Positions 1,657-50,011 of a stretch of DNA of 58,174 nt are shown here, in pieces. The notes under the pieces were generated by a model. It was not told where the DNA came from and did no database searches. It was given only the letters and a program-made list of their open reading frames with translations. The DNA is taken from NCBI GenBank assembly GCA_051876075.1, contig JBJEHM010000037.1, positions 5,566-63,739 on the forward strand, given 5' to 3'. The position numbers and the translations under genes are program-made. The DNA is from Coriobacteriales bacterium (GTDB taxonomy: Bacteria > Actinomycetota > Coriobacteriia > Coriobacteriales > QAMH01). Positions within the stretch are counted from its first letter, which is position 1. Every line of letters starts with the position of its first letter.

Positions 1657-6036
<4,380 letters not shown>

Positions 6037-9534: not shown

Positions 9535-9601
9535 CTACTGTCCTCCTTCATATGTGAGCAGATTGGTTCCTACGAATGCATATTGCACCAATAGGACCTA
9601 G

Positions 9602-9630
9602 ACCATATGTATTTGGTCTGGCTTCGTCAA
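9602..9630 (-). promoter_or_regulatory. Sigma70-type promoter for rpoBC
   Basis: Minus strand TTGACG-N17-TATGGT, ~70 nt upstream of the rpoB start. Confidence 0.6.
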
Positions 9631-9751
9631 GAAAAACTTTGCCCAGCGGGCATTTGGCTGGGCAACCATCGGCAAACGGCACAAAAAAATCGGAGATGCA
9701 CATACATCCCCGGTTGTCAAGCACAGAGATAAAGAAGTTGAGCGCAAGGGT

Positions 9752-10855
9752 TTACGCATGTTGGGAGGCTGCGGGCTGCCGGCCCAAGTCGTAGCTCCCA
9801 AAACGCGAATGAGCGATGCTTACCGCACCGCAGCGCTTGCGGGGGTCGCCCAACACGGCAATGCCCGGAACCTCCGCCAACAGCCTTGCAGCCAAGTCAG
9901 TGAGCTCATGCTCGCGCTGTTCCAGCTCGCTGCGCCCCAAGCTCTCCAAGAACTCGGCCGCGCAGCCCAGCGCTACAGCGCCGGCTATGTTCGGGGTCCC
10001 CGCCTCTAGGCAATCGGGCAGTGTGGAGTAACGCGGAATAGTGCCCTCAAGCTCATCGATCATTCCCCCACCGTACGCTGGGGGTTCCAGCAGCTCAAGC
10101 GCTTCTGCCGTCCCGTAAAGCACCCCGACACCAGAGGGCGCACACATCTTGTGGCCAGAGAGCACCGCGTAATCGCAGCCGAGCATGCCTACGTCCAAGT
10201 GCAGCGCTCGGGCAGCTTGTGCGGCGTCCACCAGTACCAGTGCTCCCGAACGGTGCGCAGCACGAACCAGCGGCTCGAGCTGGGTCACCGCGCCGGTTAC
10301 GTTTGAACAGGCTGTGAGAGCGCAGACGCGTGCCCGTCCGTCCGCGAGCAGCTCCTCAAAGTGTTCGGAGCAGATGTCGCCGCGATCATCCAGTGGTGCC
10401 ACCCTCAGTTCCGCCCCAGTGCGCTTGCACAGCTCCAGCCAAGGCAGATAGTTGCTGTGGTGTTCCAATGCGCTCACCAATACTGCGGACTTGGAGTCCA
10501 GGTGAGCCTCAAGGCCCCGTGCCACCATGTTAATACCCTGCGTGGTACCAGAAGTGAAGACCACAAAGCCGTGCTGTGGAGCGTTCAGGAAGCGTGCCAT
10601 GGTTGCTCGAGCGCCCTCGTATGCCGCAGTCGCCTCCTCGCCCAGCGCATGCGCCCCGCGATGGATGTTGGCGTTCTGCCAGCAGAGATGCTGTGCCAGC
10701 GCATCCACCACACAATGCGGCACCTGCGCCGTTGCCGCATTGTCCAAATACACCAGCGGCCTCCCGTTGACTTGGCGTTCCAAGATGGGGAACTGCGCTC
10801 TCACCTCGCGCACGCGCTCCTCGCTCCATATGTTGCTCTTGCTGGCTCCGCCCAT
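9752..10855 (-). CDS. sufS: SufS-family cysteine desulfurase (class V PLP aminotransferase), C-terminally truncated; possible pseudogene
   Basis: LVYLDNAATAQ, ANIHRGAH, EHHSN, VDAAQA, PLP-lysine motif SGHK, EAGTPNIAG. Ends at 367 aa before the RxGHHCA catalytic-cysteine motif. Confidence 0.85.
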   Translation of the reverse strand: MGGASKSNIWSEERVREVRAQFPILERQVNGRPLVYLDNAATAQVPHCVVDALAQHLCWQNANIHRGAHALGEEATAAYEGARATMARFLNAPQHGFVVFTSGTTQGINMVARGLEAHLDSKSAVLVSALEHHSNYLPWLELCKRTGAELRVAPLDDRGDICSEHFEELLADGRARVCALTACSNVTGAVTQLEPLVRAAHRSGALVLVDAAQAARALHLDVGMLGCDYAVLSGHKMCAPSGVGVLYGTAEALELLEPPAYGGGMIDELEGTIPRYSTLPDCLEAGTPNIAGAVALGCAAEFLESLGRSELEQREHELTDLAARLLAEVPGIAVLGDPRKRCGAVSIAHSRFGSYDLGRQPAASQHA

Positions 10856-10858
10856 TTC

Positions 10859-11287
10859 CTACTCCTCCTGCAGCGCCTTCCAGACCAACGCGGCCAGCTG
10901 TGCCACATCGGTACAAAGAGCCGCCCTGAATCCATCGAACTCCACGCGGAACTCCTTCTTGAGCGCCATGAGCATGAGCGCCTGCTTGACGGTGGCGCTG
11001 TCCGCCCCGTCGCAGTTGGCCGGCTTGTCTTCAACCGCTACCAGCTCGGGGGCGATGCGCAGCAACTTGGCCAAGCTCAGCTGCGCCAGCTCCTCTATCC
11101 TCCCCTGTGCCGACGCAGCTTCTTCTGGGGCCAGACGGAATTTGGCCAGTACAAAGCGCTCTACCAGCTCCTCCATCCGCTCCAGCGTGATTGTCCCTTC
11201 TGTTCGATCACGCGCGAACTCCTCGCAAACGGCAGAGGCCGCGCGCTTTGCAGCGAGCAGCCTCTTCATGGTCTCCTTGCTGGTCAC
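10859..11287 (-). CDS. Hypothetical 142-aa helical protein; C-terminal half resembles an acyl-carrier-protein fold and carries a Cys (CDGADS)
   Basis: ORF packed between the isomerase-like gene (8 nt gap) and sufS (3 nt gap); motif DS...LMALKKEFRVEF...DVAQLAALV. Confidence 0.75.
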   Translation of the reverse strand: MTSKETMKRLLAAKRAASAVCEEFARDRTEGTITLERMEELVERFVLAKFRLAPEEAASAQGRIEELAQLSLAKLLRIAPELVAVEDKPANCDGADSATVKQALMLMALKKEFRVEFDGFRAALCTDVAQLAALVWKALQEE

Positions 11288-11295
11288 AACGGAGC

Positions 11296-12828
11296 CTAGG
11301 CGATGACGGGCTCGAGCCCCAGACGCTGCGCCACCAGCTTGAAGTCCTCGACGTAGTCACCGTAGACAACGGGCAGGTGCAGGCCAAAGGTCACGTGCTT
11401 GGCAAAGAAGTCGTGGATGTCGTTCACGCGGAAGAGGAAGCCGCCGTTGCAGTTGTCGCTGTCAAAGCCAAAGCCGGCGACGATCTCCCCCTTGCCGATG
11501 AACATCTGCGTGCAGTCGGAGCTGATGCGGATCATGGTCACAACCTGACCCCTGTCCTTGTCGAAGTCATGACGCTGGATCGCGCCAAAGCCGGCGTCCA
11601 GGGCGAAGTGGCGCAGCGTGTACTCGTCGAGATCGTCGAAGCTGTGCAGCGCGCGGCAGGGCGTGGAGTGCGTGGTGAAGTAGAGGTTGTCGCGCTGGTC
11701 TTCCGGCAGGTCGACGGCGTACTTGCCGTCCGAGAAGTTCACGGTTCCGTCGAAGGCCTTGGGAGCAGGCAGGGTGTTGCCCATGTAGGCTGCCTTGCCC
11801 GCCACCGCCATCTCGATGAGCATGCACAGCACGGCTGTGACGTCGTACTCGCACGCGCTGCCGATGCCCTGCTCGAGGTTGAGGCTGTGGGTGAGGCAGA
11901 AGGTGAACTGCTGCTCGTTCAGGCGGCGTGTGGAGCAGGCATCCGGGCACGGCGCTGCAAAGCCGGAGCAGTCGTAGTAGTCCATCAGCTTGTTGACCAC
12001 CTTGTAGGCTGTCAGGCTGTTCACTACGAACTTCTTGGCAACCTGGCACTCCGCTGCACCGCCCATCAGCTCGTCGGCAAGTTCCTCGCACCAGGCGAGC
12101 TCCTCGGGCGTGATGTTTTGCGTGATGCGGCCCGGCGTCGTGTGGTTTCCGCCCTCTGGCAGGGGCTGCATGTAGTCCATGAGCTCGTGGATGTTCACGT
12201 AGCGGAAGTTCGTGCCGAGCTTGTCGCGCACGGCGTTGAGGCTGTCGAAGGTGTCCGTGCCGCCGGCGATTGCCTTGTCGCCGCCAAAGCGCGGGGCGAG
12301 CAGGATGTTGGCGTTGCGCACGACCTTTTCCGCGCGCAGGGCGAGCAGCTTGCGCTTGAGCTCGGGCCAGTCCAGCGCGAAGATGATGTCTGCTCCGCGG
12401 CGCACGCTGGAGGCAAAGCACAGCTGCCCGAACATCTTGAAGGGGTTGGCGCCCATGGGCTTGTTTGTGCGCAGGGCGAACTCCTCGATTGCAGTGTTGG
12501 CGCCGAATGCCGTGCTCAGCAGATAGAAGTCGACGCGTGCGTCGTCTGCCAGTGCCTGCTCGAACCATTCCTCCTTGAGGTCCCAGTCGTCGGTCATGGT
12601 GATGAAGGCGGGCTCGAGCACCTCAAAGCGCTCGTCGCTGCGCAGGTTGAACTCGATCGCCTTATCGAAGCCCTGGTAGATCTTGCCGTTAACGATGGCG
12701 TCGAAGCCCTTCTCGAGCGCGTCCCCGCTGGCCATGCGGCAGGGGCCTTCATAGTAGTACTGGTGCTCCATCCCAAAGAACACCGGCTTGACCACCAGCT
12801 TGAAGTCGCGAACGCTCTTGACTGTCAT
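11296..12828 (-). CDS. L-fucose/L-arabinose isomerase-fold protein, Cys-rich variant, function unknown
   Basis: 510 aa from ATG 12828 (purine-rich RBS). SACEYDV, YMGN, FTTHS, GQVVTMIRIS, NCNGG and GLHLPVVYGDY match the FucI/AraA C-terminal domain pattern. Confidence 0.75.
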   Translation of the reverse strand: MTVKSVRDFKLVVKPVFFGMEHQYYYEGPCRMASGDALEKGFDAIVNGKIYQGFDKAIEFNLRSDERFEVLEPAFITMTDDWDLKEEWFEQALADDARVDFYLLSTAFGANTAIEEFALRTNKPMGANPFKMFGQLCFASSVRRGADIIFALDWPELKRKLLALRAEKVVRNANILLAPRFGGDKAIAGGTDTFDSLNAVRDKLGTNFRYVNIHELMDYMQPLPEGGNHTTPGRITQNITPEELAWCEELADELMGGAAECQVAKKFVVNSLTAYKVVNKLMDYYDCSGFAAPCPDACSTRRLNEQQFTFCLTHSLNLEQGIGSACEYDVTAVLCMLIEMAVAGKAAYMGNTLPAPKAFDGTVNFSDGKYAVDLPEDQRDNLYFTTHSTPCRALHSFDDLDEYTLRHFALDAGFGAIQRHDFDKDRGQVVTMIRISSDCTQMFIGKGEIVAGFGFDSDNCNGGFLFRVNDIHDFFAKHVTFGLHLPVVYGDYVEDFKLVAQRLGLEPVIA

Positions 12829-12890
12829 GTTCTTCCCCTCTTTCCTAGGCTGGGCCCTGCATGCAGCCATCTGCAGCAAGCTTTTTATTC

Positions 12891-12967
12891 ATTCTAAGAA
12901 GGGTTAGAGCAGGGGAATTCGTCATTTAGCCTAGGTATTGCGGGAGAACTCAGTGCAAGATGACGAA
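12891..12967 (-). promoter_or_regulatory. Promoter and inverted-repeat operator upstream of the isomerase-like operon
   Basis: -10 TAGAAT (12891-12896); inverted repeat TTCGTCATTTAGC (12918-12930) / GCAAGATGACGAA (12955-12967), 11 of 13 matching. Confidence 0.55.
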
Positions 12968-12994
12968 ATTGCATAGCTGTGGGAACAGGGTTCT

Positions 12995-14545
12995 TCAGCA
13001 TCCCAAGCGTCTTATCAAGCGGAACTCCGCGTCCAGGCGGCGGCGCACGGCGGGGTCGTCAAGATCGAGTCCGTACGTATCTTGCAGGCGCTGAATGCGG
13101 TAGGCGAGTGTGTTGCGGTGCACGAAGAGCCGCTCGGCCGCAAGCCCTGTCTTGCGCTCGCACTCCAGGTAGACTTGAAGGACATGGGCGTCGTCGGTAC
13201 CGTTCTCCTCGTCTGAACGCGTGATGAGGGCTGCGCGGCTGTGCTGTAGGCAGGTCTCGACAAAGTCCCTGCTCTGCAGGCCGCTGAGCATCAGGTAATC
13301 CGCGAACAAGCTGCTGAAGCTGTGGATGCACGCGCTGGGATAGCCAAACGCGGCACCCGTCTTCAAACCCTCGCACAGCTGCTGGTAGGCAAACGACAGG
13401 CTGCGCAGCTCCTGGATCGAATCCGAGCAGATGCAAGTGGCGTCGTAGCGGGCTAGGTGTTCCTCCAACGCATTTGCAAAGGAACTGTCGGCGCCCTGGG
13501 CCGCGGGTGCCAACACGAGCACGCGGGATTCCGTCAAGGCGAGCACCAGCGGGTGGGACAGCCTTGCAAGCTCCATCGCGCGTTGGGCTGCTATCTGGCG
13601 TTCCTGAGAGTGCAGTCCATAGTCCACAACCATCAGCAACATGGCCTGCCCATCGGTAAAGCCGCGCTCGGCCAGCGCCTTGCGCACCTTGCGGTTGACA
13701 CCGACTAACCCTGTGGCGCAGTCCGTCAGCGCAGCAGACGCGCTTTCCTCAAAGATCGACTCCGAAGGTGGGTTGCGTTGAATTCCCAGCTCGATGGCGT
13801 CGATCATCAGCTGCAGCTTGTCTTTGAGGGCGGGCGTGAGGCTGCAGTGCTCCAGGTGGACCACCAGGTGCATGTAGTAGTTGCCGTTGACCCTGAAGAC
13901 ATAGAAGACAAGCGGGTAGCTGCGGTAGTTCGTAGTCGTCTCTATGAGCGTGATACCGTCGACGAGCTCCCACTGCGTGGAAAGGCCCGACTCCTGAAAG
14001 TGCAGCACAGCTTCCTCGTCGAACGACCCATTTTCGATTGCGCGGAGCACAACGTCCTCTCGCGGGCGGAGCTCGCTGGTGTATGCGACGATCTGCAAGC
14101 CCACACCCGAGACGATCATGGGGCAGCCGATGAAGGGGGCGCTGGCGTTCAAGATCGCATTGAAGTCAGCGCCATCAAGGGCGAGTTCTGTTATGCAGCG
14201 CTCCCAAGCCAAGGTTTCTTGGAAGAGTACAGAAAGGTCTGCCGCTACGGCTGCGATACCGCGTTTGTCACGCACGCCTAGGCAGCGCCCGGTGACGGTT
14301 AGTGCTCCCAGCGGTTTGTCACTTTCTTCCAGCAAGCAAACTGCCTGGAGCAGTGGGCGGCGTTCCAGCTCCTCGAGGCAGCGGTCCTGGTCGGTTTCGA
14401 GCAGGAGGAGCTGGCTGTCGTCAAAGCCGTGCAGCTGCTGTCCCGCGGCCACAAGCCCGGTAAAGTCGGAAGACTCATCTGCTGGCAAGAAGGCGAGTGA
14501 GCACTGCCCGAGTGATTCGATGATCATGTTGAAGCTTACAGTCAT
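12995..14545 (-). CDS. PucR/CdaR-family transcriptional regulator
   Basis: C-terminal HTH LQVYLECERKTGLAAERLFVHRNTLAYRIQRL...DLDD typical of PucR-type regulators. ATG 14545 lies 9 nt after TACAAT; the ORF-track start 14575 is an alternative. Confidence 0.9.
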   Translation of the reverse strand: MTVSFNMIIESLGQCSLAFLPADESSDFTGLVAAGQQLHGFDDSQLLLLETDQDRCLEELERRPLLQAVCLLEESDKPLGALTVTGRCLGVRDKRGIAAVAADLSVLFQETLAWERCITELALDGADFNAILNASAPFIGCPMIVSGVGLQIVAYTSELRPREDVVLRAIENGSFDEEAVLHFQESGLSTQWELVDGITLIETTTNYRSYPLVFYVFRVNGNYYMHLVVHLEHCSLTPALKDKLQLMIDAIELGIQRNPPSESIFEESASAALTDCATGLVGVNRKVRKALAERGFTDGQAMLLMVVDYGLHSQERQIAAQRAMELARLSHPLVLALTESRVLVLAPAAQGADSSFANALEEHLARYDATCICSDSIQELRSLSFAYQQLCEGLKTGAAFGYPSACIHSFSSLFADYLMLSGLQSRDFVETCLQHSRAALITRSDEENGTDDAHVLQVYLECERKTGLAAERLFVHRNTLAYRIQRLQDTYGLDLDDPAVRRRLDAEFRLIRRLGC

Positions 14546-14784
14546 AACGGTCCCATTGTATCCACCCCAGGACACTCACGAGCTCGTCCATTTGGCCAAG
14601 GAGCGCTTGGCGTGCGGGCCTGGAGCCGGGAATGCGAGATGCGGAGGCAGGGAACGCCTGGCGTATGCCATCAGCGGCGGGAGCCCCGTCTTTTGGCCCC
14701 ACTTTCTGTGCCTGCAGGCACATTGTGCGGGGTGTTCCGTAGGAATCAAGTCAAGCTGTCCAAAAATGCGGCACCACTTCGCCT

Positions 14785-15055
14785 CCACCAGGCCCGCCTC
14801 CGCCAGCCTCTCCAGCGTTCCCTTGAGCCTCCCGGAGGGGATGTCGACCTCCCCCGCCAGCTCATCGGCGGTGCACCTGCGGTTCCTCTTGAGGGCGTCG
14901 AGCACCAGCAGCGAGCTCAGCGGCAGCGCGGTTCCGCGGCGGTCGCGCTCCTCTGCGAGCATCCTCACGAACTCCGCGTCCGGCTCGCTCCTTGCGATGA
15001 AGAGGCTGACCTTGGTGGAGTCGGACTCCGTGTAGTCTGGGAGGGGGCGCCCGAG
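14785..15055 (-). pseudogene. Internal fragment of a winged-helix regulator, resembling the C-terminal part of Schlafen/AlbA_2-HATPase-HTH proteins
   Basis: Manual translation GRPLPDYTESDSTKVSLFIARSEPDAEFVRMLAEE...LLVLDALKRNRR...LERLAEAGLVEAK. No N-terminal domain or proper start, and similarity stops abruptly. Family recognised from memory only. Confidence 0.55.
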
Positions 15056-15076
15056 CTCACCCCGCAGGTTCAGTCC

Positions 15077-47069: not shown

Positions 47070-49019
47070 TCAGCTCCCCTCGCGCCGGGAGGCGGCCAGC
47101 GGTGCCAGGTTGTCACGCACCCACTGGATGTTGCCCATCACCGTGGCGACGAGCTCCTCCTGGCTCTCGAACTTGAGCTGGGGGCGCATCCAGTGGACGA
47201 GCTCCAGCTCGACGGTCTTGCCGTAGAGGTCCCCGCGGTAGTCGAGCAGGTGGGCCTCCACAGGGGCGGTTGCGGCGTCAAAGCTGCGCGCCACCCCAAC
47301 GTTCACAGCCGCAGCATAGCAGGCCCCTGCGACACGGCAGAAGCCCCCGTACACGCCCTCGCGCGGCAGCATCACGTCGCCTGCCGGTTCCACGTTGGCC
47401 GTGGCAAAACCCATGCCGCTGCCCTCACCGCGGCCGTGCACCACCACGCCGCTCAGGCAGCAGCTCCCGCCCAGGCGCACTGCAGCGTCGACGTCGCCTT
47501 CAGCCAGCAGCTGGCGTATGCGCGTTGCGCTCACCACCTCGCCCTCTGCGCAGAGCAGCTCCTGGGGGCAGCAGCGCGCACCGTGCGCTGCGCACCAGCC
47601 GTCGATATCGCTCACCGTGCCGGCCGCCCTGCTCCCAAAGCGGAAGTCGCAGCCCACGTGGACGCTCTGCACCTGGAACAGCTTGCCCAGGCTCTCCAAG
47701 AAGGCCTGGGGTTCCACCGCAAAGCAGGCGCGCTCGGCGCGCATGGCCACCACCTCTGCGATCACGCCCGGGTTGTAAGAGCGCAGCAGCTGCAGGCGCT
47801 TGTCATCGCTCATGAGCTTGAAGCTCGAGGCCTCGCGCCCGAAGAACTCGTCTGGGTCCTTCTCGAAGGTGAGCACGCTCACAGGCACGCCGCGCCCCTG
47901 CGCATCTGCCACGGCGGCGTCAAGCAGGCTGCGGTGGCCGTTGTGCAGGCCGTCGAAGACGCCGATTACCAGCACGCGGGGGCCCAGCGGCTCGCACACA
48001 GGCTCGCAGGGGCTCCACAGGCGCAGGGCGCTGAGCTTCCTTGCACTGCGCACGCCGCACACCCCACCCGGAATCACCAGCTCGGGCCGCGCTGGGCCGT
48101 CCCCCTGCTCGTAGAGCGCCATGAGGTGCCCCTTGCTCACGCAGGCGCTCAGCCCCTGAGGCAGCGCGCGCTTGAGCGGTCTGCCGTTGGAGACATCTTT
48201 GAGCTCGGATTCGCTCAGCTCGCACGCGCTGGCCACGCCCAGCAGGGCAACCGGGTCCTCCCAGGGGAACTCGCGGCCGGCAGCTGCGGCCTCGCCCAGC
48301 TCCTCCAGGCTCACGGCGCGCTCGAGGCCAGTGCCGCCGACCTCGGTGCGGTTGAGGGCGCTCAAATGGGCGCCGCAGCCCAGGCTCTGGCCCAAGTCGC
48401 GCGCGATGGAGCGTATGTAGGTCCCCTTGCTCACCTTGAGGTCGACGTCCCAATAAGGCAGTGTCGCGGCAAAGCGCCCGCCCTGCCCGTCGTCGAGGTC
48501 GACTTCCTCAAAGCCCGCCTGTAGGAAGCGCGCCTCGTAGATGGTGACCTGGCGCGGCTCGAGCTCGAGCTCCCTGCCCTCGCGGGCCGCCTTGTATGCA
48601 GTGACGCCGTTCTTCTTGATGGCGCTGAACGCAGGGGGCAGCTGCATAGTGGGTCCGGTGATGCCGTCGAGTAGCTGCTGCGGCTCCACGGCGGCCAGGC
48701 CCGCCAGACCCTCGCCGGGTGCGGTCTTAGTGTATGCGGTGGTGATGCGGCCCTCTGCGTCGTCTGTATCGGTAGCCGCACCGAACACGATGCGCGCAGT
48801 GTAGCGCTTGTCATGGCCGGTGAGGTAGGCGGAAAGCCTGGTGGCCGCCCCCACGCACACGAGCATGAGGCCTTGCGCCATGGGGTCGAGCGTGCCCGCA
48901 TGCCCCACGCGGCGCTCGCCGGTCACACGCCTCACGGCGTTGACCACATCATGGGATGTAATGCCCTTGGGCTTGTCTATTGCAAGGACACCGCACAGTC
49001 CGCTGGTGCCTCGCTTCAT
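47070..49019 (-). CDS. truB: Fused tRNA pseudouridine-55 synthase TruB / riboflavin kinase-FAD synthetase RibF
   Basis: N-half DKPKG, VGHAGTLDP, SKGTYIRS; C-half GVFDGLHNGH, DFRFG, VSATRIR, GFATAN, EAHLLD; single uninterrupted frame. Confidence 0.9.
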   Translation of the reverse strand: MKRGTSGLCGVLAIDKPKGITSHDVVNAVRRVTGERRVGHAGTLDPMAQGLMLVCVGAATRLSAYLTGHDKRYTARIVFGAATDTDDAEGRITTAYTKTAPGEGLAGLAAVEPQQLLDGITGPTMQLPPAFSAIKKNGVTAYKAAREGRELELEPRQVTIYEARFLQAGFEEVDLDDGQGGRFAATLPYWDVDLKVSKGTYIRSIARDLGQSLGCGAHLSALNRTEVGGTGLERAVSLEELGEAAAAGREFPWEDPVALLGVASACELSESELKDVSNGRPLKRALPQGLSACVSKGHLMALYEQGDGPARPELVIPGGVCGVRSARKLSALRLWSPCEPVCEPLGPRVLVIGVFDGLHNGHRSLLDAAVADAQGRGVPVSVLTFEKDPDEFFGREASSFKLMSDDKRLQLLRSYNPGVIAEVVAMRAERACFAVEPQAFLESLGKLFQVQSVHVGCDFRFGSRAAGTVSDIDGWCAAHGARCCPQELLCAEGEVVSATRIRQLLAEGDVDAAVRLGGSCCLSGVVVHGRGEGSGMGFATANVEPAGDVMLPREGVYGGFCRVAGACYAAAVNVGVARSFDAATAPVEAHLLDYRGDLYGKTVELELVHWMRPQLKFESQEELVATVMGNIQWVRDNLAPLAASRREGS

Positions 49020-50011
49020 CAACGCACCGCCTCTTCACCCGCTAGCTCGAAGGAGGCCGCCACATGGGCGATCACGGTCTGGATCGCCTCCTGGATGTTG
49101 CCGTACAGGGTGAAGCCGCTTGCAGCCCTGTGACCGCCGCCGTTCATCTTCTTGGCGATCGCCTGGACGTCATGGCTTGTCTTGGAGCGGATGGACCCGC
49201 GGATGTGGTCGCCCTGGCCGCGCAGAATCACAGAGACCTCGGGGCCGTCGATCTGACGCACCACGTCTGTGAGCTCCTCACAGTCGTCCTTGCTCGCACC
49301 CAGCTCGACGAGGTCGGCATCGTCCATCCACGAGATGACCAGGCGGCCGTCGCAGGCGAACTGAGCGCGCTGCGCGACCCTCGACTCAAGCTGCAGGGCA
49401 GCGAGGCTCTTGCGCTGGTAAACCATAGTGGCCACCAGGGCAGGCTCTGCACCGGCGGCGACCATCTGGGCTGCCGCCTCGAAGGCGCGCTGGTCTGCGT
49501 TCTGGAACCTGAAGGAGCCGGTGTCGGTGAGCAGCGCAGCATAGCAGCAGCGCGCCATACCCGGCGTAGGCTCCACGCCCAGCTGGGGCAGCAGCTCCCA
49601 CACCAGCACGCCAACAGCCGCGGCATCCTCATCTATATAGCTGTAGTCTGCGATGTCTGCCGGGCCGGCGTGATGGTCGATCTTGACCGTGACCGCAGAA
49701 CGGGCCCTCACGGCGGCAGCATCGTCCATGCGCGCGTCTTCCGGCACGTCCAGCATGACGAAGACATCCGGCTGCCCGCTGTAGTCTGCAGCGGGGACCA
49801 GCTGCCCAAAGCCGGGGAGGAAGTCGTAGAGCTGGGGCTTCTCCCTCGTTGCCAGCAGCGGCGTCGCCTGGATGCCAAGGGACTGCAGCGCCTGGGCAAG
49901 CGCCAAGACGCTGCCCAGGCAATCGCCGTCCGGATTGCGGTGGCCGCAGAGGGCCACCGTTCGTGCGTTCTTGAGCAGCTCTACTGCTCCTGAGAAATCG
50001 AATCCAGCCAC
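49019..50011 (-). CDS. nrnA: DHH/DHHA1 phosphoesterase (NrnA-like oligoribonuclease / pAp phosphatase)
   Basis: HRNPDGDC, IDHH, TDTGSF, GSIRS, GGGHRAASG; lies between rbfA and truB. Confidence 0.9.
   Translation of the reverse strand: MAGFDFSGAVELLKNARTVALCGHRNPDGDCLGSVLALAQALQSLGIQATPLLATREKPQLYDFLPGFGQLVPAADYSGQPDVFVMLDVPEDARMDDAAAVRARSAVTVKIDHHAGPADIADYSYIDEDAAAVGVLVWELLPQLGVEPTPGMARCCYAALLTDTGSFRFQNADQRAFEAAAQMVAAGAEPALVATMVYQRKSLAALQLESRVAQRAQFACDGRLVISWMDDADLVELGASKDDCEELTDVVRQIDGPEVSVILRGQGDHIRGSIRSKTSHDVQAIAKKMNGGGHRAASGFTLYGNIQEAIQTVIAHVAASFELAGEEAVR

Follow-up and report, generated by a model that had tools for sequence, protein, structure and literature searches.

Cysteine desulfurases of the SufS type take sulfur from cysteine and hand it as a persulfide to SufE, the two forming a stress-resistant sulfur donor pair, and the usual acceptors of the SufS–SufE and CsdA–CsdE relays are SufBCD or TcdA. 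In the sugar isomerase AraA, E306 and E333 act as acidic metal ligands and proton shuttles and H350 and H450 as the histidine ligands. An ellagic-acid cluster (eam) has been characterised in Gordonibacter and Ellagibacter (PMC12771579). Here we describe a gene cassette that touches all three systems and that we met in a 58,174-nucleotide stretch of DNA from a Coriobacteriales bacterium (assembly GCA_051876075.1, contig JBJEHM010000037.1, positions 5,566 to 63,739), called the window in the following, with its genome as G000. The cassette encodes an enzyme of the AraA/FucI fold, a small acyl-carrier-fold protein, SufS and SufE, often beside a PucR/CdaR-type regulator, and the copy in the window is a damaged and relocated example of it. 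The system is real, conserved and apparently undescribed, and it is linked with the breakdown of polyphenols by gut anaerobes. Chances are about even that it provides an iron–sulfur (Fe-S) enzyme for dietary polyphenols of the galloyl or pyrogallol type together with its own sulfur relay; taken part by part, we hold with good confidence that the substrates are polyphenols, it is likely that the relay serves the isomerase-fold enzyme, and an Fe-S centre is somewhat favoured over another form of sulfur.

Scanning a single genome for each species gave 174 relatives of the enzyme, the best 80 of which were retained and correspond to 79 cassette loci from Coriobacteriia and Clostridia, that is from two phyla, many of these loci being cut by contig edges. 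The small protein is encoded no more than 4 kb from the enzyme gene in 76 of the 79 loci, SufE in 65, SufS in 50 and PucR in 39, and the small protein, SufE and SufS occur together at this distance in 46. The RxGxxC motif is retained in 50 of the 53 SufS open reading frames (ORFs) of the loci, the remaining three being a split gene and two cases at contig ends, and the Cys motif was matched in 69 of the 73 SufE ORFs (PF02657). The preliminary description of this DNA had looked to recurrent trios with a full-length SufS as support for a system, and such trios were found; its regulator PucR is a frequent neighbour of the enzyme, but LysR or LuxR genes often take its place. Fusions of the small protein occur with SufS in one locus (L036) and with SufE in two (L067 and L024). 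Two SufE–enzyme read-through ORFs (L081 and L086) were rejected as fusions, as an internal ribosome site and start are retained. Genes for MFS, DASS, TRAP and ABC transporters recur near the cassettes, UbiD, old yellow enzyme (OYE) flavoenzymes and a PhlG-like hydrolase (a weak match) are neighbours in single loci, and there are several paralogues per genome, each with its own regulators and transporters. The enzyme is rare, being present in 0/349 random Clostridia (the centre genome aside), and a profile search that included more distant forms collected 132 representative proteins at E < 1e-30.

The enzyme of the window is a protein of 510 amino acids (11296..12828, minus strand), and its earlier assignment to the isomerase fold is borne out by the structure model (predicted local distance difference test score, pLDDT, 92), which matches the AraA/FucI fold in Foldseek (E 5.5e-18, template modelling score, TM, 0.65) and aligns with L-arabinose and L-fucose isomerases at TM 0.60–0.67 and 11–14% identity. 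The fold is shared along the whole chain with AraA and FucI (PDB 4r1o, 2ajt, 1fui); sequence searches of the PDB found nothing for the enzyme, there was no Pfam match, and the match to the model of the sulfoquinovose isomerase SftI (NF048012) was weak, at 18 bits (E 9e-4) against a cut-off of 700. Residues were mapped by aligning the profile with that of AraA from E. coli (P 81.7), and in this alignment E306, H350 and H450 correspond to E327, H387 and H484 of the window enzyme and F279 to C294, whereas E333 becomes G350. In an alignment of 105 full-length relatives, without partial and duplicate rows, this position is Gly in 100 and Ala in 5, and H387 and H484 are kept in 103. As far as the alignment can tell, the metal pocket is partly kept, with three of the four AraA metal ligands, and one proton-shuttling acid is lost. 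Seven invariant cysteines (C30, C287, C294, C298, C311, C326 and C460) are present in 104–105 of the 105 sequences; C326 adjoins E327, the equivalent of E306, and C294, C298, C311 and C326 fall by alignment in segments lining the metal pocket. The enzyme therefore differs from AraA and FucI in having Gly at E333/D361, Cys at F279 and the additional invariant C30, C298 and C460. An ordinary sugar isomerase dependent on Mn, which might act on the sugar at the core of tannins and have the Suf genes as passengers, would explain the AraA/FucI fold, the kept E327, H387 and H484 and the name fucose isomerase that databases give to the protein. We regard it as highly improbable, as the second acidic ligand is replaced by Gly or Ala throughout, no sugar kinase recurs among the neighbours, in contrast to a dedicated carrier and SufSE genes, and 68 of the 79 loci have SufE or SufS no further than 4 kb from the enzyme gene. 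As a separate observation, the distant relatives P0159, P0161, P0170, P0177 and P0180 carry N-terminal twin-arginine-like leaders, which suggests that they may be exported in a folded, cofactor-loaded form.

The second protein (10859..11287, minus strand, 142 amino acids) had been called carrier-like, and this reading held, since its model (pLDDT 92) takes the four-helix fold of acyl and peptidyl carrier proteins (ACP, PCP), which occupy nearly all of the top 50 rows of structural matches. The best match (Z 9.1, root mean square deviation 2.3, 82 aligned residues) is modest for a helical bundle and agrees with weak sequence matches to carriers, and Foldseek returned nothing at E < 0.001 for this protein. 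In contrast to ACP and PCP it has an extra N-terminal helix, an invariant Cys in a loop insertion and fusions to Suf proteins, and it does not have the conserved phosphopantetheine Ser: the column in register with this Ser varies, and C92 and K101 are the only invariant residues (41/41 aligned sequences), so that we describe the protein as working like a carrier and do not class it as an ACP. Like the known SufS–SufE and CsdA–CsdE relays the cassette has an RxGxxC desulfurase and a PF02657 protein with its Cys motif, but the apparent acceptor is here the acyl-carrier-fold protein with the isomerase-fold enzyme. The earlier remark that no SufBCD accompanies SufS holds for SufB beyond the window too, as SufB (TIGR01980) was not found in G000, which is 92% complete, while the control was detected in 14/14. 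The conserved genes thus support the first proposal, in which a small-molecule route has a sulfur supply of its own, with the amendments that SufE has to be added and that the SufS of the window is not catalytic. Such a dedicated relay to a carrier-fold protein, and the fusions of the small protein to SufS and to SufE, could also suggest a stoichiometric use of sulfur, with a catalytic persulfide from which sulfur is inserted into, or exchanged with, a phenolic substrate. This is quite improbable, because the loci share no recurrent activating enzyme that depends on ATP and no sulfur-containing urolithin appears in the portions of PMC12771579 and its preprint that were covered.

The polyphenol link comes from the genes around the cassette and from the genomes that carry it. 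In a FastTree phylogeny the window enzyme falls into a clade of 14 rows with the copies from Gordonibacter and Ellagibacter (support 96), and these nearest relatives are located in or beside the eam cluster. Both published eah primers match the locus of Gordonibacter sp. 28C (L047) at 3156–4211, 3.8 kb upstream of the cassette, and in Ellagibacter DSM 104140 the genes for the enzyme, the small protein and SufE have an eah homologue on one side and the eadh3 primer site on the other. An Eah-type amidohydrolase is encoded in 8/79 loci, all eight from Coriobacteriia, and all five genomes of the window's family with a window-type enzyme carry eah. G000 itself has two eah-like genes (85% and 76%) and Eadh-like molybdenum (Mo) enzymes 83–95% identical to those of the cluster, and gave no transhydroxylase or UbiD match. 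Contigs from RNA libraries (three runs of one study) cover the enzyme and small-protein genes of L047 in 3/3, and in run X1 a single contig extends from eah to past sufE; parts of L047 uncovered in runs X2 and X3 were not counted as evidence. The text and supplement of PMC12771579, with the gene list of Fig. 2A outside this check, give roles only for Eah, Eadh1–3, MFS and LuxR and contain the words isomerase and desulfurase 0 times. A term search of PMC11887054 gave 0 matches, and a full-text literature search, whose coverage leaves aside most subscription papers, found no paper describing this gene set.

In the Clostridia the link is to pyrogallol. In one locus (L055) a homologue of pyrogallol transhydroxylase (E 3e-245 to 4v4c) is encoded directly upstream of the enzyme. 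Of the 79 loci, 50 were chosen for a search of their genomes, one per genome and with long contigs favoured; 39 are Clostridia, nine named Coriobacteriia and L075 and L086 being set aside. Transhydroxylase-like genes were present in 30 of the 39 cassette-bearing Clostridia (E < 1e-200) and in 1/350 random Clostridia (E < 1e-150), and Eah-like genes (at least 57% identity) in 7/39 and 1/349, respectively, including 6/6 tested members of the clostridial subclade nearest to the eam-type enzymes. As the two best-linked partners are both Mo enzymes with a bis(pyranopterin guanine dinucleotide) cofactor and Fe-S clusters, and G000 has no SufB match, the cassette might instead serve to mature or sulfurate molybdoenzymes encoded nearby (Eadh, transhydroxylase-like), with the isomerase-fold protein as scaffold or sulfurtransferase rather than as an enzyme that converts a substrate. 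We consider this unlikely: Mo enzymes are encoded in only 14/79 loci, the several paralogues per genome have regulators and transporters of their own, the metal pocket residues are retained, and Eadh1, Eadh2 and Eadh3 have been purified in active form, though from a Gordonibacter expression host that may carry the cassette (PMC12771579, as far as covered). Gallate decarboxylation as a general role of the enzyme was rejected for the Clostridia only, as a gene of the UbiD family is already present in 24 of the 39, E. oxidoreducens among them; in the Coriobacteriia such a gene was found in 1/10.

Several points weigh against a polyphenol Fe-S enzyme. How ellagic acid is turned into urolithin is already explained by Eah and Eadh1/2/3 in the covered part of PMC12771579, and the UbiD genes just mentioned mean that gallate decarboxylation needs no new enzyme in those clostridial hosts. 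In the window's family 13 of 18 eah-positive genomes have no window-type enzyme, and the eam cluster of a same-genus genome that is 97% identical at rpoB (G002) has no cassette, so that the cassette is accessory; one further genome (G453) has transhydroxylase-like and eah-like genes and no enzyme match, and 9 of the 39 cassette-bearing Clostridia have no transhydroxylase match. Because the host genomes are related, kinship inflates all co-occurrence counts and the enrichment cannot be read as a number of independent events; moreover, the transhydroxylase query was taken from a cassette locus and the background was scored with at most two candidates per genome. The RNA contigs inform on neither level, induction nor co-transcription, no silent control stretch having been compared, and the cofactor, the activity and the sulfur transfer are all putative. 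The wealth of cysteines, which the preliminary description took as evidence, is real in that seven are invariant, but a fucose-isomerase-related protein of a sugar operon shares the equivalents of C287, C294, C311 and C326 and keeps the Asp ligand, and its gene adjoins a LacI regulator and a transketolase-like gene without any Suf gene in its 4.3 kb locus. With four of seven Cys common to an ordinary relative, this is weaker evidence than assumed, and it is C30, C298 and C460 together with the loss of the Asp that distinguish the clade. An accessory, patchy and mobile cassette tied to pyrogallol-type chemistry in two phyla, with SufSE as a stress-resistant donor pair, would also suit a stress module for Fe-S repair or quinone quenching when iron-chelating, auto-oxidising polyphenols enter the cell; yet paralogue-specific transporters and one-to-one pairs of enzyme and carrier fit substrate specificity better, which makes such a module distinctly unlikely.

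For the preferred polyphenol enzyme we propose the following model. SufS would pass sulfur from cysteine as a persulfide to SufE, and SufE would transfer this sulfur to Cys92 in the carrier-fold protein, the cognate partner of the enzyme, which would then build or repair a labile cluster on C294, C298, C311 and C326 beside the pocket of E327, H387 and H484. This pocket might bind an aromatic vicinal diol as AraA binds the ene-diol of a sugar, and a non-redox step of the tautomerisation type (ring opening, C–C cleavage or decarboxylation) could follow on an imported tannin-derived acid, with the product feeding the ellagic-acid or transhydroxylase routes. That the reaction proceeds exactly in this way is doubtful.

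Fucose-isomerase-related proteins of the ordinary kind (L164:1480–2883 and L166:1027–2541) have conserved pocket cysteines in CW, PC, CExD and HCG motifs, and to judge from these a second metal or cluster that has gone unrecognised may be bound in the wider family.

In the window the cassette is incomplete. Four co-oriented ORFs on the minus strand, with the PucR/CdaR-type regulator (12995..14545, 516 amino acids, PF13556 at E 1.8e-16 and a weak PF17853 match, 81% identity to the orthologue in G002) directly upstream of the enzyme and gaps of 8 nt between the enzyme and the 142-amino-acid gene and 3 nt between the latter and the SufS gene, are present as first described; only the regulator and the aminotransferase class V domain of the SufS-type gene match Pfam among them. 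A single promoter would fit this packing, from which alone it is inferred, but the interval from pucR to the enzyme gene yielded no promoter of the sigma-70 type. Genes and packing were thus read correctly in the preliminary description, whereas an intact SufS that works without SufE was not upheld. The SufS-type gene (9752..10855, minus strand) is 3'-truncated and encodes 367 amino acids whose TIGR01979 match ends at position 345 of 403, before the RxGxxC motif with the catalytic Cys, and hence it cannot be a catalytic desulfurase. Its orthologue in G002 has 420 amino acids including RSGRHC and is followed by sufE, the core fourth gene of the system, which is lost in the window copy. The DNA homology to G002 covers 9781–14563 with 83% identity and ends within sufS ahead of the motif; a frameshifted SufS tail was tried and rejected, since the three downstream minus-strand frames yield no SufS C-terminus. 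The genome has a paralogous cassette on another contig, C110 (L019, G000:C110:3–5606), which runs past the contig end and consists of pucR, the enzyme (37% identity), sufE, the small protein and sufS with RSGHNC, and in G000 the enzyme and carrier of the window would need the SufS and SufE encoded there. Upstream of this second cassette lie a sugar-type MFS gene, interrupted by runs of N, and a USP-like gene.

The window copy sits on an insert of about 5.3 kb (9735..15063) that separates the region upstream of rpoB from a yfcE-type gene. In G002 the two are about 230 bp apart, and three further same-genus genomes hold other genes at this site. At its upstream end the insert carries a fragment of a winged helix-turn-helix gene (14576..14968, minus strand, PF13412 at E 1e-5), the DNA of which is unmatched in five same-genus genomes and which is probably a passenger. 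Compared with G002 the cassette genes show synonymous divergence (dS) of 0.24–0.99, where the 5' part of rpoB has 0.09, and ratios of nonsynonymous to synonymous divergence (dN/dS) of 0.09–0.19, with 0.09 for the enzyme gene. We infer that the cassette was acquired, was under selection and has recently lost the tail of sufS and sufE. The truncation may be an assembly error at the junction, but a real insertion is favoured, since both ends of the insert rejoin adjacent G002 core positions and this site differs from genome to genome in the genus. Neither the junction pattern (0 matches) nor the enzyme query (no confirmed relative) found a counterpart in metagenome_contigs, where records of this genome are possibly excluded; no viral relatives were found, and no terminal or target-site repeats of the insert stood out. 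The rpoB–yfcE spacer itself (9535–15063 in the window; L149, L199–L201) is variable in the genus, with a palindromic element of 230 bp in G002 and differing gene sets of 2–6 kb in G004, G005 and G006. Elsewhere in the window, a single ORF of 650 amino acids (47070–49022) holds both TruB pseudouridine synthase and riboflavin kinase/FAD synthetase domains.

Further traces of the pathway were noted in G000 and in Clostridia. A pucR scar with joined ends and lost interior (G000:C24:16083–16200) lies about 1.5 kb upstream of eadh1–eah genes and near a resolvase-like helix-turn-helix remnant, which suggests that a cassette once stood at the eam cluster of this genome. On the contigs C24 (at its end), C107, C6 and C17 the genome has an eam-type cluster that extends across two contigs, a second eah-like gene with its own Mo enzyme, and one Mo enzyme 95% identical to that downstream of the Ellagibacter cassette; by its gene content G000 is likely a urolithin producer. 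Eah-like proteins with 57–65% identity to Gordonibacter Eah are encoded in the Clostridia G071, G072, G074, G075, G076, G077, G089 and G453, and in G075 (L176, G075:C8:56700–68758) the gene lies between two transhydroxylase-like genes with a further Mo enzyme, making these strains candidate ellagic-acid degraders outside the Coriobacteriia.

The metabolism of ellagic acid and gallate by gut bacteria sets human urolithin output and the tannin tolerance of ruminants. The cassette, to which the text on the characterised ellagic-acid cluster assigns no role, stands within this cluster or next to it and is a strong marker of transhydroxylase-bearing Clostridia, which points to an unrecognised step that is testable in cultured, genetically tractable strains. 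Several hundred proteins automatically named fucose isomerase are probably misannotated. If the relay is true, the carrier fold with its Cys would be a new type of sulfur acceptor and the AraA/FucI fold would have gained a new cofactor. It is a tentative possibility that this is a new class of metalloenzyme system, in which a sugar-isomerase fold has come to act on polyphenols with an Fe-S (or persulfide) centre and is loaded by an acyl-carrier-fold protein, which bears a Cys persulfide in place of phosphopantetheine and ends a private SufS–SufE relay, for a missing step of ellagitannin or gallotannin breakdown such as the opening or cleavage of a biaryl or lactone. If so, the choice of urolithins or phloroglucinol-derived products in a gut community would be shaped by this step.

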